Shown here one piece after another: positions 14,794 to 22,000 of a DNA stretch of 64,000 nt (the first letter of the stretch is position 1; each line of letters starts with the position of its first letter). The notes beneath the pieces are model-generated. The model did not search any database. It saw nothing but the letters and a program-made list of their open reading frames with translations, and had not been told where the DNA came from. Source of the stretch: Prevotellaceae bacterium. GTDB taxonomy: Bacteria > Bacteroidota > Bacteroidia > Bacteroidales > Paludibacteraceae. Made by a program: the position numbers and the translations under genes. The stretch lies in assembly GCA_020636695.1 (NCBI GenBank), contig JACJXJ010000004.1, positions 6,135-70,134 on the forward strand, given 5' to 3'.

Positions 14794-15690
14794 TTATTTT
14801 GTCAACGCTCTAAAAATCTCTTCCATCGATTCCTCCAGTTGACGCATAGTTAGAATCATCATTTTCTTTTCAGTAGCAAAACTAAACAAGAGTTCCCTCA
14901 CGTCCGAACGTGCTGAAATCTGAAACAATTTATCAGACAACGCGTCCACTTTCAAAATATCACTAGAAAGTTGGGCTAAATCGTGACACATTGGCTTCGA
15001 AAATTCAACTTCAAAACGCAACATTTGAGAACCTTGCGTAATAACCGATTCGGCCTCGTCGGCCACAATGTTTCCTTTATTAATAACCACCACACGCTGA
15101 CATAAAGCCTGCACTTCCTGCATAATGTGGGTAGAAAATAGTACCGTTTTTTCCTTACCAACCTCACTAATGAGTTGACGAATCTCCACCAATTGATTTG
15201 GGTCTAAACCAGTAGTTGGCTCATCTAAAATGAGCACTTGCGGATCGTGAATAAGCGCTTGAGCTAATCCTACACGTTGGCGGTAACCCTTAGACAATTG
15301 TCCAATGCGTTTATGACATTCAGCCGTCAAGCCAGTACGCTCAATCATATTTTCAATACGCGCCTTACGATTATCCAATTGGTAAAAATGTACCATAAAA
15401 TCAAGATATTCACGCACATACATGTCCAAGTAAAGTGGATTATGTTCTGGCAAATAACCAATTAAACGACGTGTAGCCAAATTAGATGGTGACACAAGCT
15501 CTCCACAAACAGACACTTGCCCACTATCAGGTTGCACAAAACCTGTAATAATTTTCATCAAGGTGGATTTTCCAGCGCCATTAGGGCCCAAGAAACCAAC
15601 AATCTCGCCTGCCTTTAGTTCTAAATTAATCTGATTTAGAACCACTTTCTGAGCATACGATTTAGAAACATTTTGAACAGATAGTGACAT
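14794..15690 (-). CDS. gldA: ABC transporter ATP-binding protein, GldA-type
   Basis: Walker A GPNGAGKST, signature LSKGYRQR and Walker B LILDEPT. IGYLPEHNPLYLDMYVREYLDF closely matches the GldA sequence as I remember it. Confidence 0.65.
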   Translation of the reverse strand: MSLSVQNVSKSYAQKVVLNQINLELKAGEIVGFLGPNGAGKSTLMKIITGFVQPDSGQVSVCGELVSPSNLATRRLIGYLPEHNPLYLDMYVREYLDFMVHFYQLDNRKARIENMIERTGLTAECHKRIGQLSKGYRQRVGLAQALIHDPQVLILDEPTTGLDPNQLVEIRQLISEVGKEKTVLFSTHIMQEVQALCQRVVVINKGNIVADEAESVITQGSQMLRFEVEFSKPMCHDLAQLSSDILKVDALSDKLFQISARSDVRELLFSFATEKKMMILTMRQLEESMEEIFRALTK

Positions 15691-15815
15691 CTAATAAGGT
15701 ATTAAAAATAAACCTGCAAATATACAAAAAAACTACCAACTTATATGAGTTAGAAAGATATGAGAGAATTTTGCACTTTTTTTTATTTTTTTTTGGAAGG
15801 AATCAAAAAAAGTTT

Positions 15816-15823
15816 TACCTTTG
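15816..15823 (+). promoter_or_regulatory. -7 box TACCTTTG upstream of tRNA-Gln (and possibly of the phe leader/operon)
   Basis: Exact TAnnTTTG match 28 nt upstream of the tRNA-Gln 5' end. I found no second box between the tRNA and the leader ORF. Confidence 0.55.
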
Positions 15824-15850
15824 CACCACTTTTCTAAGGGAAAGCGGTAT

Positions 15851-15921
15851 TGTCTCATGGTGTAATGGTAGCACTACAGTTTTTGGTACTGTCTGTCTAG
15901 GTTCGAATCCTGGTGAGACAA
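15851..15921 (+). tRNA. tRNA-Gln (anticodon TTG)
   Basis: Acceptor TGTCTCA/TGAGACA (U1-A72), anticodon stem ACAGT/ACTGT with loop TTTTGGT, and T arm CTAGG-TTCGAAT-CCTGG. Length 71 nt. Confidence 0.88.
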
Positions 15922-15941
15922 CAATATTAGAAAGATTTTAT

Positions 15942-16007
15942 ATGAAATCATTATTTACTAATTACTTCTTTTTCTACTTTTACTTTAGCAGTAAGAGCAG
16001 GATTTGA
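15942..16007 (+). CDS. Phe/Tyr-rich leader peptide MKSLFTNYFFFYFYFSSKSRI
   Basis: 21 codons plus TGA. Codons 8-15 are all Phe or Tyr. The 3' end overlaps one arm of an alternative helix in the attenuator upstream of pheA. Confidence 0.7.
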   Translation: MKSLFTNYFFFYFYFSSKSRI

Positions 16008-16054
16008 TGTATGTAGTTTCATTTAAAATTTGTAATTATACGAGAATCCTGCTC
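15995..16054 (+). promoter_or_regulatory. antiterminator helix of the phe/tyr attenuator
   Basis: GAGCAGGATT (15995-16004, ending 1 nt before the leader stop) is the exact reverse complement of AATCCTGCTC (16045-16054), which also forms the 5' arm of the terminator. Confidence 0.6.
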
Positions 16055-16080
16055 CAATTCGAGCAGGATTCTTTGTTTTT
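16043..16080 (+). terminator. attenuator terminator immediately upstream of pheA
   Basis: 12-bp perfect stem AGAATCCTGCTC/GAGCAGGATTCT with loop CAATTC, followed by TTGTTTTT. It ends 14 nt before the pheA ATG. Confidence 0.8.
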
Positions 16081-16093
16081 AGATTAAATCAAT

Positions 16094-16942
16094 ATGAATC
16101 AATCACTCCAAGTAGCCATTCAAGGCACACAAGGCTCATTTCATGACATTGCCGCACGCCTCTATTTCGGTAATAAAATCAAGATTCTATCATGCAATAC
16201 ATTCAAAGAATCTATTGATTTAGTACGGAAAGACCCAACCATAGTGGGAGCAATTGCCATAGAAAATACCATTGCAGGAAGTTTGTTACAAAATTACAAC
16301 CTACTGAAAGATAGTGACGTCCGCATTATTGGTGAGCATAAACTGCGTATACAACACAGCTTAGTGACTCTTGAAGGACAAAAGATTGAAGACATTCATG
16401 AAGTTCGTTCGCATTACATGGCACTATTACAATGCGAACAATTTCTATCACAATACCCACACATACAACTTATTGAGGCTGATGATACTGCAAAAAGTGC
16501 TTATCAAATAGCCTCCGAAAAAATACAAGGCATAGCTGGTATTTGTTACGCAGAAACAGCGAAACAATTTGGCCTCCACATTTTAGCAGAAGGTATTGAA
16601 ACCAACAAACACAATTTTACACGGTTTCTAATGGTTTCACATAAAGATAAAGCTGAAGAATTCACGCAAAAAGACACTTGCAACAAGTCATCCATGGTAT
16701 TTTCCCTTCCACACGAACAAGGCAGTTTATCTAAAGTCCTGACTATTCTTTCATTCTACAACATTAATTTAACAAAAATACAATCGTTACCAGTCATTGG
16801 TCATGAGTGGGAATACCTCTTTTACATCGATTTGAGTTTTGATAATTACATACGATACACACAAGCTATCGATGCCATTCGACCATTGATACGCAACATA
16901 AAGATTTTAGGGGAATATACAGAAGGAGCACAAACCATTTAA
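16094..16942 (+). CDS. pheA: prephenate dehydratase
   Basis: VAIQGTQGSFHDIAA N-terminus, TRFLMV motif and a C-terminal ACT domain (SMVFSLPHEQGSL). Confidence 0.9.
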   Translation: MNQSLQVAIQGTQGSFHDIAARLYFGNKIKILSCNTFKESIDLVRKDPTIVGAIAIENTIAGSLLQNYNLLKDSDVRIIGEHKLRIQHSLVTLEGQKIEDIHEVRSHYMALLQCEQFLSQYPHIQLIEADDTAKSAYQIASEKIQGIAGICYAETAKQFGLHILAEGIETNKHNFTRFLMVSHKDKAEEFTQKDTCNKSSMVFSLPHEQGSLSKVLTILSFYNINLTKIQSLPVIGHEWEYLFYIDLSFDNYIRYTQAIDAIRPLIRNIKILGEYTEGAQTI

Positions 16943-16953
16943 CATTGTTGTTT

Positions 16954-18129
16954 ATGAACCAAAGTTTCGTAGGAGCCACACGTTTAGAATCGGTGCAAGA
17001 ATACTACTTCTCGCGCAAACTGAAAGAAATTGCTCGCATGAATGCCGATGGCAAACATGTGATTAGCTTAGGCGTAGGTAGCCCTGATATGCCACCATCG
17101 GAAGAGACTATCAAAACATTGTGTGAACACGCTCATCATAGTGATGCGCATGGCTATCAACCTTATGTAGGGATTCCAGAACTACGCCAATCCTTTGCTG
17201 ATTTCTACAAAAAATGGTATCAGATCACTCTAAATCCGACCAACGAAATTCAACCTTTAATTGGTTCAAAGGAAGGTATTTTACATATCACCTTGGCATT
17301 TGTCAATCCTGGCGAACAAGTTTTGGTCCCAAATCCTGGTTATCCAACATACACATCCCTAAGCACGCTACTTGGCGCAGAAGTTATACCATACAACCTT
17401 ACCGAAGAAAATGGCTGGTTGCCCGATTTCGATGCATTGGAACAGCTAGATTTAAGTAAGGTTAAATTGATGTGGACCAACTATCCTCACATGCCAACAG
17501 GAACAAATGCCACATTAGAATTATACCAAAAACTAGTAGACTTTGGGAAAAAGCATCATATTATCATTGTCAACGACAATCCTTACAGCTTCATTTTAAA
17601 CAAGAAGCCGTTAAGTATTTTACAAATAGAAGGCGCCAAAGACTGTTGTATCGAGCTAAACTCAATGAGTAAAAGCCACAATATGCCAGGTTGGCGCATC
17701 GGCATGGTAGCCTCCAATGCTACGTTTATCGAATGGATATTAAAAGTGAAAAGCAACATCGATTCGGGCATGTTCCGTCCGATGCAATTAGCAGCCGCCA
17801 CAGCACTACACAACGACGAAAGTTGGCACGAAGAAATGAACTACAACTTGTACCAAAAACGACGTCATTTGGCAGAACAAATCTTAGAAACGTTACAATG
17901 CACATACAACAAATCGCAAGTCGGATTATTTGTATGGGGGCGCATTCCCGACCATTATCAACAAGTAGAAGATTTAACGGAAACCATCTTACAAAAAGCA
18001 CACGTTTTTATCACACCTGGTTTCATTTTTGGTAGTAACGGAGCACGTTACATACGCATTTCATTGTGTTGCGACGAACAAAAACTAGCCGAAGCACTGG
18101 ATCGAATCAAACAAAACATAACAGAATAA
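16954..18129 (+). CDS. class I/II PLP-dependent aminotransferase (aromatic/aspartate type)
   Basis: NPGYPTY, a DNPY-type motif and the Lys-containing SMSKSHNMPGWRIG motif. The start was set at the ATG at 16954. Confidence 0.85.
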   Translation: MNQSFVGATRLESVQEYYFSRKLKEIARMNADGKHVISLGVGSPDMPPSEETIKTLCEHAHHSDAHGYQPYVGIPELRQSFADFYKKWYQITLNPTNEIQPLIGSKEGILHITLAFVNPGEQVLVPNPGYPTYTSLSTLLGAEVIPYNLTEENGWLPDFDALEQLDLSKVKLMWTNYPHMPTGTNATLELYQKLVDFGKKHHIIIVNDNPYSFILNKKPLSILQIEGAKDCCIELNSMSKSHNMPGWRIGMVASNATFIEWILKVKSNIDSGMFRPMQLAAATALHNDESWHEEMNYNLYQKRRHLAEQILETLQCTYNKSQVGLFVWGRIPDHYQQVEDLTETILQKAHVFITPGFIFGSNGARYIRISLCCDEQKLAEALDRIKQNITE

Positions 18130-18172: not shown

Positions 18173-19237
18173 ATGGATTTCGAACGGTTTAAACTTCCCA
18201 AATTAGAACAAAAACGACCTATCATTATTGCTGGGCCATGCAGTGCTGAAACAGAAGAACAAGTATTAACAACGGCTAAAGCATTAGCCAAAAATGGTGT
18301 TCAAATTTACCGTGCTGGCATTTGGAAACCACGCACAAAACCTGGTGGTTTTGAAGGAGTTGGTAGCGAAGGACTACAATGGTTACGCCGAGTAAAAGAA
18401 GAAACAGGTTTGTACACGGCCACCGAAGTTGCCACAGCCAAACATGCATACGAAGCTCTAAAATATGGTGTTGATGTGTTATGGTTAGGCGCGCGAACCA
18501 CGGCCAATCCATTTGCCGTGCAAGAAATTGCCGATGCCTTAAAAGGCGTTGATATTCCTATACTCATCAAAAATCCAGTAAACCCAGATTTAGAACTGTG
18601 GATTGGAGCTATTGAGCGTATTTACAATGCCGGCTTGCACCAAATAGCCGCCATTCATCGTGGTTTCAGCTCATACGATAAAAAACTTTATCGCAATCAA
18701 CCACAATGGCATATTCCTATAGAACTACATCGCCGATTACCAGAGTTACCACTTTTCTGCGACCCAAGTCACATTGGGGGAAAACGCGAACTTATTGCGC
18801 CACTCTCTCAACAAGCGATGGATTTACAATTCGACGGTTTAATCATCGAAAGCCACTGTTCGCCCGATAATGCTTGGAGCGACAAAGACCAACAAGTATC
18901 GCCCGAAGTGTTAGATGTCATCTTACGCAAATTAGTGATTCGTGAAATGAAACAATCTACTGAAGATTTAGTTGATTTGCGTCGTCAGATTGATGATTTA
19001 GACAATACATTATTGGAAATATTGGCTAAACGCATGCGTGTTTCTCAAGCTATTGGAACCTATAAAAAAGAACACGGCATAGCTGTACTTCAAACGGGAC
19101 GTTACAACGAGATTCTTGAAAAACGTATTATGAATGGCGAAAAATTAGGAATGAGCCATGAATTCATGCGCACCATTTTAGAAGCCATTCACGAAGAATC
19201 GGTACGCGTTCAAATCGACTTAATGAATAACGACTAA
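18173..19237 (+). CDS. bifunctional 3-deoxy-7-phosphoheptulonate (DAHP) synthase / chorismate mutase type II
   Basis: N-terminal KDSA/AroG-Ibeta-type TIM barrel (IIAGPCSAE, KPRT, DPSH). The C-terminal ~90 aa form a helical CM_2 domain (LRRQIDDLDNTLLEILAKRMRVSQAIGTYK). Confidence 0.88.
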   Translation: MDFERFKLPKLEQKRPIIIAGPCSAETEEQVLTTAKALAKNGVQIYRAGIWKPRTKPGGFEGVGSEGLQWLRRVKEETGLYTATEVATAKHAYEALKYGVDVLWLGARTTANPFAVQEIADALKGVDIPILIKNPVNPDLELWIGAIERIYNAGLHQIAAIHRGFSSYDKKLYRNQPQWHIPIELHRRLPELPLFCDPSHIGGKRELIAPLSQQAMDLQFDGLIIESHCSPDNAWSDKDQQVSPEVLDVILRKLVIREMKQSTEDLVDLRRQIDDLDNTLLEILAKRMRVSQAIGTYKKEHGIAVLQTGRYNEILEKRIMNGEKLGMSHEFMRTILEAIHEESVRVQIDLMNND

Positions 19238-19249
19238 ATTTGACACACC

Positions 19250-20023
19250 ATGAAAATTCTTATTCTCGGAGCAGGTAAAATGGGTACATTTTTGACCGAC
19301 TGCCTATGCATAAAACACGAAGTGGCGTTGTTCGACACAAATCCTAGCCGATTACGCTTTGTATTTAACACACAAAGATTCACGCAATTAGAAGAAATAA
19401 AAGCGTTTGAACCCGAAATTTGCATTAATGCTGTAACACTAAAATACACGATTAGTGCCTTCGAAAGCGTACTTCCTTTTCTTCCGAAAAATTGCATTTT
19501 ATCAGACATCGCATCAGTTAAAACGGGACTCCAAGAGTTTTATCAACATACAGGTATGCGTTATGTATCAACACACCCGATGTTTGGACCAACATTCGCC
19601 AATCTGTCTGATTTAAGTACTCAAAGTGCCATTATCATAGCCGAAAGCGACCATTTAGGCAAAGCATTTTTCAAGGATTTTTACGGTTCATTGCAATTAA
19701 ATATTTTCGAATACACGTTCGACGAACACGACGAAACAATTGCCTACTCGCTATCCATTCCATTTGTATCCTCACTCGTTTTTGCCGCCGTCATGAAACA
19801 TCAGGAAGCCCCTGGAACTACCTTTAAAAAGCATTTAAATGTGGCTAGAGGCTTACTATCCGAAGATGATTATTTATTGTCTGAAATTCTTTTCAACCCT
19901 CACACCGCCAATCAAATAGAAGCCATCAAAAGTCAAATGACCGAATTACAAAACATTGTAGAACAAAAGAACTTAGTACGCATGCAACAATTCCTCACCA
20001 AAGTCCGCACAAATATTGAATAA
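19250..20023 (+). CDS. tyrA: prephenate dehydrogenase
   Basis: Rossmann fold N-terminus (ILILGAGKMG), an STHPMFGP motif, and position as the last gene of the aromatic amino acid operon. Confidence 0.85.
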   Translation: MKILILGAGKMGTFLTDCLCIKHEVALFDTNPSRLRFVFNTQRFTQLEEIKAFEPEICINAVTLKYTISAFESVLPFLPKNCILSDIASVKTGLQEFYQHTGMRYVSTHPMFGPTFANLSDLSTQSAIIIAESDHLGKAFFKDFYGSLQLNIFEYTFDEHDETIAYSLSIPFVSSLVFAAVMKHQEAPGTTFKKHLNVARGLLSEDDYLLSEILFNPHTANQIEAIKSQMTELQNIVEQKNLVRMQQFLTKVRTNIE

Positions 20024-21468: not shown

Positions 21469-21545
21469 TATAAAACAAGAAAGGGTTGTCGTCCCGACAA
21501 CCTCAATCTTTTCTTAACCTTAAATCTAATACCATGAAAAACACG
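21469..21545 (-). ncRNA. candidate small RNA, copy 1 (promoter-to-terminator unit)
   Basis: On the minus strand: TTG(-33)-N20-TACCTTTG(-7, 21549-21556), then a ~45-nt block identical to copy 2, then the hairpin GGTTGTCG-GGA-CGACAACC followed by CTTTCTTGTTTT. The 5' end is inferred from the -7 box. Confidence 0.5.
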
Positions 21546-21548
21546 TAA

Positions 21549-21556
21549 CAAAGGTA
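21549..21556 (-). promoter_or_regulatory. -7 box TACCTTTG of sRNA copy 1
   Basis: Exact TAnnTTTG match with ATGTTG 20 nt upstream. The same architecture is found in copy 2. Confidence 0.55.
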
Positions 21557-21912: not shown

Positions 21913-21989
21913 TATAAAACAAGAAAGGGCTGTCATCACGACACCCTCAATCTTTTCTTAACCTTAAATCTAATACCATGAAAAACACA
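21913..21989 (-). ncRNA. candidate small RNA, copy 2
   Basis: On the minus strand: TTG-N20-TATCTTTG (21993-22000), the same conserved block GTGTTTTTCATGGTATTAGATTTAAGGTTAAGAAAAGATTGAGG, then the hairpin GGGTGTC/GACAGCCC (different sequence, same position) and CTTTCTTGTTTT. Confidence 0.5.
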
Positions 21990-21992
21990 TTG

Positions 21993-22000
21993 CAAAGATA
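21993..22000 (-). promoter_or_regulatory. -7 box TATCTTTG of sRNA copy 2
   Basis: Exact TAnnTTTG match with ATGTTG 20 nt upstream. Confidence 0.55.

Follow-up and report, generated by a model that had tools for sequence, protein, structure and literature searches.

The operon which joins pheA, an aminotransferase gene, a fusion of 3-deoxy-D-arabino-heptulosonate 7-phosphate (DAHP) synthase with chorismate mutase (DAHPS/CM) and tyrA serves the common entry steps (DAHPS/CM) as well as the phenylalanine (Phe) branch (pheA) and the tyrosine (Tyr) branch (tyrA) of aromatic amino acid biosynthesis, with an aminotransferase shared between the branches, and the question raised here is how its transcription may be adjusted to two amino acids at once. 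The copy in question lies on contig JACJXJ010000004.1 of a Paludibacteraceae bacterium, within a stretch of 64,000 nucleotides (nt) that was analysed as a whole and is referred to as the window. Directly in front of pheA stands a short open reading frame (ORF) rich in Phe and Tyr codons (F/Y), followed by two competing hairpins, and this leader is very probably a ribosome-mediated leader-peptide attenuator which senses both Phe and Tyr and controls the whole operon, a reading that rests on sequence features and their conservation. The parts of the leader and the genes downstream, the latter taken from the ORF list with their NCBIfam matches, are as follows (all on the + strand).

15942-16007, +, leader ORF, 21 codons plus TGA, translating to MKSLFTNYFFFYFYFSSKSRI
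15963-15986, +, regulatory codons (codons 8-15, all Tyr or Phe), TAC TTC TTT TTC TAC TTT TAC TTT
15995-16005, +, segment 1, 5' strand of the antiterminator, overlapping the final leader codons (stop codon at 16005-16007)
16042-16054, +, segment 2, 5' arm of the terminator and 3' strand of the antiterminator, GAGAATCCTGCTC
16061-16073, +, segment 3, 3' arm of the terminator, GAGCAGGATTCTT
16074-16080, +, T-tract of the intrinsic terminator, TGTTTTT
16094-16942, +, pheA, prephenate dehydratase
about 16945-18129, +, class-I aminotransferase
18173-19237, +, DAHP synthase fused to chorismate mutase
19250-20023, +, tyrA, prephenate dehydrogenase

The leader and its two alternative hairpins

The leader ORF reads ATG AAA TCA TTA TTT ACT AAT TAC TTC TTT TTC TAC TTT TAC TTT AGC AGT AAG AGC AGG ATT TGA, and its peptide holds six Phe and three Tyr residues, with no Trp codon among the 21. 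A run of at least eight F/Y codons occurs once in the six frames of the 64-kb window and was produced by none of 200 first-order Markov simulations. Downstream of the leader, a terminator scan returned a 13-bp stem at 16042-16073, with six G-C pairs, which closes a 6-nt loop and leads into TGTTTTT; this T-tract ends 13 nt before the pheA ATG (16094). The terminator folds at -21.4 kcal/mol (z = -6.7), with none of 200 dinucleotide shuffles as good. Its 5' arm has a second partner at the end of the leader, where GAGCAGGATT (15995-16004) is fully complementary to AATCCTGCTC (16045-16054) over a perfect 10 bp, and the resulting antiterminator fold (15987-16057) reaches -22.1 kcal/mol (z = -5.0), again unmatched by any of 200 dinucleotide shuffles. 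Since segment 2 is common to both structures and their energies are nearly equal, terminator and antiterminator are mutually exclusive. The three hallmarks of ribosome-mediated attenuators are found together in the window: a cluster of F/Y codons directly before the pheA to tyrA operon, a hairpin with a U-tract between leader and pheA, and an exclusive helix with its 5' strand at the leader end.

The original prediction, drawn from the letters of the locus, had described a 21-codon ORF with eight consecutive F/Y codons (six Phe and three Tyr in all), complementarity between segments 1 and 2, and a terminator hairpin before pheA; translation of 15942-16007, the perfect 10-bp match and the scan bear these out in turn. 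The description of the locus was incomplete in one respect, a tRNA-Gln gene 19 nt upstream of the leader ATG having been overlooked, to which a later section is devoted.

The proposed control would operate as follows. RNA polymerase, most likely starting from the promoter of that tRNA-Gln gene, would transcribe the 21-codon leader, which would be translated by a ribosome. With Phe-tRNA and Tyr-tRNA plentiful, the ribosome would pass the eight F/Y codons, reach the stop codon (16005-16007), which follows the segment 1 core by 2 nt, and cover segment 1, leaving segment 2 to pair with segment 3, so that the hairpin and T-tract would end transcription near 16080, 13 nt before pheA. With either charged tRNA scarce, the ribosome would stall within 15963-15986, its footprint falling short of segment 1. 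A stalled ribosome whose A site is occupied by an F/Y codon shields some 12-15 nt further downstream, and would therefore stop just short of segment 1, which could then pair with segment 2 in the antiterminator (-22 kcal/mol), block the terminator and permit transcription of the operon. That a shortage of either amino acid relieves termination (a multivalent logic) is what we infer from the alternating Tyr and Phe codons and the content of the operon. The dual sensing put forward at the outset suits the alternating TAC TTT TAC TTT core and an operon with both pheA and tyrA; the sensing itself is read from codon content.

Conservation and covariation across Bacteroidales

A PheA-based scan, with one genome taken per species, yielded 80 loci, all from Bacteroidales or Marinilabiliales by PheA similarity, the closest being Paludibacteraceae metagenome-assembled genomes (MAGs) with PheA identities of 88% and 80%. 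An ATG-started F/Y-rich mini-ORF was found upstream of pheA at 74 of the 80. Among the six others, the leader of L016 is clipped by a contig end, L030 and L076 likewise meet contig ends, L058 has a probable GTG start, and L035 and L062 have no leader, another gene standing immediately before pheA. Of the 78 pheA loci that could be evaluated, some 76 thus have an F/Y-rich mini-ORF with the YFYF core in frame, and they are spread over Paludibacteraceae, Prevotella, Bacteroides, Phocaeicola, Dysgonomonas, Tannerellaceae and Marinilabiliaceae. The F/Y frame of L058, lacking an ATG, opens GTG CAA AAC GTA CAC AAT TTT TAT TAT GGC TTC TAT GCA TAC TTT TAC TTT..., which suggests either a non-ATG start or a decaying leader.

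The leader peptides, 17-34 amino acids long, share the aromatic run alone (...YFFFYFYF..., ...YFYFFFYFYF... and ...YFYGYYFYF..., for instance). Over 69 leaders the core is in frame in every one, and nucleotide conservation along TAC TTT TAC TTT is 90% or more. A stop-free in-frame ATG lies upstream of the YFYF core at 63 of 63 loci, as against 4 of 63 and 2 of 63 in the other two frames; by eye, and without a count, the alignment gaps between ATG and run are mostly multiples of three and those after the run arbitrary. Beyond the run the constraint changes in kind. The segment 1 box AGCGGGA (AGCAGGA in the window) starts 8-14 nt after the YFYF core (median 12) in all 69 leaders, but falls in all three reading frames (35, 20 and 14 leaders), where it is read as KSG, KRE, EAG or, in the window, SR, and the position of the stop codon relative to the end of the box ranges from 11 nt upstream to 31 nt downstream. 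With the spacing from run to segment 1 fixed, and the peptide tail, frame and stop variable, what is constrained is translation of the F/Y run and the RNA itself, as opposed to the C-terminus of the peptide; coding constraint reaches from the ATG to the end of the F/Y run and no further.

The hairpins are conserved in their turn. A hairpin with a T-tract was identified in 74 of the 75 sequences that carry a leader, with a median of -17.7 kcal/mol, although one of the 74, that of L055, is weak at -3.1 kcal/mol. In 64 of 74 cases the pairing of the terminator 5' arm with its own leader outdoes its pairing with 99 or more of 100 shuffled leaders, and the mean pairing between leader and arm is -15.7 kcal/mol for cognate against -12.8 kcal/mol for non-cognate combinations, with none of 5000 permutations as good. 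Covariation was assessed on a plain, unfitted MAFFT alignment of 69 leaders, the window and 68 others. RNAalifold recovered the terminator with compensatory changes at all seven core pairs, and found no consensus structure in this alignment beyond the terminator stem. When the two structures of the window were laid on the alignment, the 13 terminator pairs had 88.2% of cells paired with double changes at 13 of 13 (no shuffle out of 500 as good; at most 58% when slid), and the 10 antiterminator pairs had 79.8% paired with changes on both sides at 9 of 10 (again 0 of 500; at most 51% when slid), figures to be read with the reservation that the shuffles ignore relatedness and that the tested structure was derived from the window, itself in the alignment. 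By eye, the three segments change together:

Most loci: segment 2 TCCCGC, segment 3 GCGGGA, segment 1 GCGGGA
Window: segment 2 TCCTGC, segment 3 GCAGGA, segment 1 GCAGGA
L014: segment 2 TCTCGC, segment 3 GTGAGA, segment 1 GCGAGA
L013: segment 2 CCCACC, segment 3 GGTGGG, segment 1 GGTGGG

The alignment of pheA upstream regions proposed with the original prediction has thus returned a conserved F/Y mini-ORF and covariation in both helices. Together with the tight spacing from run to segment 1, the conserved mini-ORF and the compensatory changes in both helices support the attenuation logic then suggested. The F/Y leader attenuator is a real, order-wide element.

To the reservation on the covariation figures should be added several further points which weigh against an attenuator of the kind described. 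Segment 1 has a further partner in the minimum free energy fold, the F/Y codons, which would amount to the classical 1:2 “protector” or pause helix, and this pairing is weak (-10.6 kcal/mol, z = -1.0), no better than that of shuffled sequences; across the leaders it has 77.5% of cells paired, as against 76.5% when slid by one position, with covariation absent. A fourth, “protector” helix is possible yet unsupported and is not claimed, and with no 1:2 helix an untranslated transcript is predicted to read through by default, unlike that of E. coli trp. In some lineages the stop codon lies 15-31 nt beyond segment 1, so that masking by a ribosome at the stop would not be the whole story and kinetic coupling has to be invoked. 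Finally, no promoter is recognisable directly before the leader of the window, and no TAnnTTTG box, the Bacteroidota-type promoter motif, lies between tRNA-Gln and pheA.

The choice of codons within the run deserves separate mention. Tyr is encoded by TAC at all three positions of the window leader, whereas the genes of the window favour TAT (368 against 173 TAC), and over 70 leaders 207 TAC stand against 99 TAT. The TACTTTTACTTT core is near-invariant at synonymous sites (alignment columns 46-60). The TAC bias and the invariant core point to an additional constraint at the level of the RNA or of decoding, the candidate 1:2 helix showing no covariation.

This last observation lends itself to a different explanation, in which the leader RNA acts mainly without translation, as a riboregulator binding a protein or ligand or as a small RNA (sRNA), the short terminated transcript of tRNA trailer and leader, acting in trans in the way of rnTrpL in Sinorhizobium, the ORF being incidental or secondary. 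The TACTTTTACTTT...AGCGGGA block is indeed more conserved in nucleotide sequence than the peptide would require, codon choice is biased to TAC, and trans-acting attenuator RNAs and peptides have precedent (PMC7298713, PMC7968998). Against this, a start, an open frame and the absence of stops are conserved in the F/Y frame alone, the gaps between ATG and run keep mostly to multiples of three, and no conserved structure that might make up a ligand pocket exists besides the two alternative hairpins. An Rfam cmscan of 15600-16300 at E <= 10 gave no leader, T-box or riboswitch family. A role in trans could, moreover, be added to attenuation and need not replace it, and an explanation without translation is judged improbable.

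Less probable still is that the product of the mini-ORF is a small hydrophobic peptide with a function of its own, such as a membrane peptide, and that the hairpin is a conventional intergenic terminator. The ORF is conserved and strongly hydrophobic and aromatic, as such a peptide would be, but the run is the only part of it conserved, with both termini, the length and the frame after the run varying freely; the element always stands directly before the Phe/Tyr operon, and its terminator is always paired with a competing helix. Pfam and NCBIfam searches with four leader peptides at E <= 10 gave no match.

Some relatives carry more than one copy of the element. Two full sets of F/Y leader, segment 1 and terminator stand in tandem upstream of pheA in several Bacteroidales MAGs (L012:3700-4000, L014/L015:3714-4000, L018:3631-4000 and L026:3652-4000), and these loci are, from their sequence, natural double attenuators. 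In L014 the two leaders are MKNLVYSYYFFFYFYFKQ and then MIIISIHNGYFFYFFYHFIS, each with its own TCCCGC-type terminator.

The tRNA-Gln gene in front of the leader

If the leader of the window has no promoter directly before it, from where is it transcribed? Three further features upstream bear on this point.

15792-15823, +, candidate Bacteroidota-type promoter: -33 TTTG at 15792-15795, 20-nt spacer, -7 box TACCTTTG at 15816-15823
15851-15922, +, tRNA-Gln(UUG) with no encoded CCA (ARAGORN; Rfam tRNA model, 60 bits)
15923-15941, +, A/U-rich 19-nt spacer from the tRNA 3' end to the leader ATG, presumed 5' untranslated region (UTR) of the leader after tRNA 3' processing

The stretch at 15792-15823 is one which we take to be a promoter by its likeness to the Bacteroides consensus. 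Its TACCTTTG box, ending 27 nt before tRNA-Gln, is the sole + strand TAnnTTTG between gldA, the neighbouring gene on the other side, and pheA, which makes the stretch the one candidate promoter for leader and operon; it is kept in L001 and L002, the two closest relatives, and the same box is found just upstream of the other tRNA (6252) and of both genes of the FopS family of sRNAs in the window. The terminator scan gave no terminator-like site between tRNA-Gln and the leader. An internal promoter in the T-arm of the tRNA, TAGGTTCG, was also considered and judged unlikely, with one mismatch to TAnnTTTG and a TTTG 12 nt upstream instead of the usual spacing of about 20. The leader and operon of the window are, on the strength of this layout, probably co-transcribed with tRNA-Gln from the tRNA promoter.

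Among 60 loci scanned, a tRNA-Gln at this position was found only in the window, L001 and L002, in which the layout of promoter, tRNA and leader is about 94% identical, and was absent from the 57 others. Where the tRNA is missing, almost every locus has a TAnnTTTG box that begins 26-53 nt upstream of the leader ATG, implying a dedicated promoter and a short 5' UTR, so that the tRNA-Gln of the window clade occupies the place of the leader promoter and transcription start of other Bacteroidales. There is perhaps an even chance that the attenuator of the Paludibacteraceae clade formed by the window, L001 and L002 no longer has a promoter of its own, having become a trailer of tRNA-Gln(UUG). Were this so, transcription of the Phe/Tyr operon would depend on a tRNA promoter, with attenuation as its only operon-specific control. 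As no CCA is encoded, the leader mRNA would acquire its 5' end through tRNA 3' processing, at a point 19 nt upstream of the ATG, about where other lineages start transcription. The attenuator terminator would double as the tRNA terminator, ending tRNA transcripts when Phe and Tyr are replete.

A mixed tRNA-mRNA operon of this sort has a parallel in thrU-tyrU-glyT-thrT-tufB of E. coli, where a message likewise comes from a tRNA promoter and is freed by tRNA processing, as would be the case here. The downstream gene there encodes a translation factor and no attenuator intervenes, whereas in the window the attenuator lies between the tRNA and the operon.

Least probable of all the alternatives is that the hairpin (16042-16081) serves as the terminator of tRNA-Gln only, with mini-ORF and complementarity arising by chance in T-rich sequence and pheA having an unrecognised promoter of its own: the tRNA does end 19 nt before the ORF without any other terminator, and no TAnnTTTG box follows it before pheA, yet the same order of ORF, segment 1 and terminator recurs at more than 70 tRNA-less pheA loci (57 others in the tRNA scan), the F/Y run did not arise in any of the 200 simulations, the 13 nt between T-tract and pheA ATG leave no room for a promoter, and a hairpin that also ends the tRNA under attenuation would make the two roles compatible, not rival.

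A short identity between tRNA and leader was also observed. The T-arm 8-mer GAATCCTG (15905-15912) is identical to part of segment 2 (16044-16051), and hence complementary to segment 1 (15998-16007) and segment 3 (16064-16071); competition of the T-arm for segment 1 or 3 in an unprocessed tRNA-leader precursor may be imagined, albeit speculatively. The identity is probably due to chance, because GAATCC is found in segment 2 of tRNA-less loci too. The TCCTGC variant occurs also in L003 and L004, both without the tRNA.

Relation to described attenuators

The original prediction knew of no described Phe/Tyr leader for this type of operon, but one has been reported. Guérin et al. (ISME Commun 2021, PMC9723704, Supplementary D9, Table S7) annotated a mixed F/Y leader before pheA-aspC3 in Flavobacterium psychrophilum (THC0290_N_0195), with a mapped transcription start, a figure of terminator and antiterminator, and a higher signal over the 5' segment. 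Read-through was reported to depend on the condition, including minimal medium, operon expression being maximal in minimal media, and the leader to be conserved in other Flavobacteriaceae (PMC9723704). It aligns colinearly to the Bacteroidales profile and scores 18.8 bits, the highest score among 2000 shuffles being 5.0. The operon is of the same type (pheA-aminotransferase-DAHPS...), the mixed Phe/Tyr run MNTNNTFYSNNSFYFYWNIGRDCYMVI resembles that of the window, and the parts follow in the same order: run, about 9 nt, AGGGATTGT, spacer, ACAATCCCG, loop, then CGGGAT and T9, with an ATCCCG/CGGGAT core. The TCCTGC/GCAGGA core of the window is a covarying variant of the TCCCG/CGGGA type, and location, run, segment order and spacing all agree. 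The two differ in class (Flavobacteriia against Bacteroidia), in the run, which in F. psychrophilum is shorter, interrupted and includes Trp, and in the promoter, the F. psychrophilum leader having its own mapped SigA-type promoter where the window has a tRNA-Gln gene; the support there is transcriptomic, whereas the element of the window is known from its sequence. On these grounds the two are treated as members of one Bacteroidota-wide family.

The likeness extends to the neighbourhood. Divergently adjoining the pheA operon, as in F. psychrophilum, is gldA:

14794-15690, -, gldA, gliding-motility ABC (ATP-binding cassette) ATPase, matching slightly above the NCBIfam equivalog cutoff

The shared gldA/pheA neighbourhood suggests an ancient synteny across Bacteroidota classes.

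In enterobacteria, the pheL leader (Rfam Phe_leader; Gurvich et al. 2011, PMC3082878) similarly places an ORF with Phe codons before pheA, with a choice between terminator and antiterminator made by ribosome position and a biosynthetic product which is the amino acid of the regulatory codons. The window, however, gives no match to the Phe_leader covariance model at E <= 10, its run mixes Phe and Tyr (YFYF core) before an operon that adds tyrA and DAHPS/CM, the enterobacterial four-segment 1:2 helix is unsupported, and there is no Shine-Dalgarno context. In E. coli, tyrA and aroF are under TyrR. The element is therefore an analogue of enterobacterial pheL and not a member of that family. A single leader with codons for several amino acids is known from E. 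coli thrL (Thr and Ile) and ilvL (Ile, Val and Leu), in which shortage of any one encoded amino acid relieves termination; these concern other amino acids, operons and another phylum, without homology, and the dual sensing proposed here is read from codons only.

Within the same phylum, the Bacteroid-trp leader (Rfam; Weinberg et al. 2010, PMC2864571) is also a predicted leader-peptide attenuator for an aromatic amino acid, and was mapped upstream of trpE in F. psychrophilum (PMC9723704). It differs in its run of Trp codons and in its operon; its model has no match in the window, and the window leader has no Trp codon. A search of the accessible literature found no Bacteroidales-specific description of a pheA F/Y leader, and one for YFYFYF nothing relevant. 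The B. thetaiotaomicron transcriptome paper treats leader-like small ORFs in generic terms only, its supplements having no FYFYF or prephenate entry. An abstract by Vitreschak et al. from 2004 reportedly mentions candidate attenuators in Bacteroidetes/Chlorobi, which may include pheA.

Rfam scans at gathering thresholds over the whole window and 14 related loci returned tRNAs and FopS only. The Rfam comparison suggested with the original prediction thus gives no leader family here or in those loci. The F. psychrophilum homologue likewise has no Rfam match. With no Rfam, Pfam or NCBIfam model for the family, the F/Y leader goes unannotated, and the alignment of 69 sequences with its two covarying alternative helices would be sufficient to seed an RNA family.

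An element of a classical and already reported kind, of which the tRNA-Gln fusion is the one unusual local feature, leaves the general picture of attenuation unchanged. What the element appears to provide is the main specific control of Phe and Tyr biosynthesis across Bacteroidales, including gut Bacteroides, Phocaeicola and Prevotella. It also offers a test case for the coupling of transcription and translation in a phylum without Shine-Dalgarno-led initiation; the conservation of the run while frame and stop drift shows which features of a leader matter, and the tRNA-fused version of the window and the tandem versions of its relatives are natural variants for the study of attenuator dynamics.

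Last of all, beyond the operon the window holds two paralogous genes of the FopS sRNA family (Rfam RF04319; 77 and 73 bits) on the minus strand, at 21469-21544 and 21913-21988, each with a TAnnTTTG box a few nt upstream (21549-21556 and 21993-22000).

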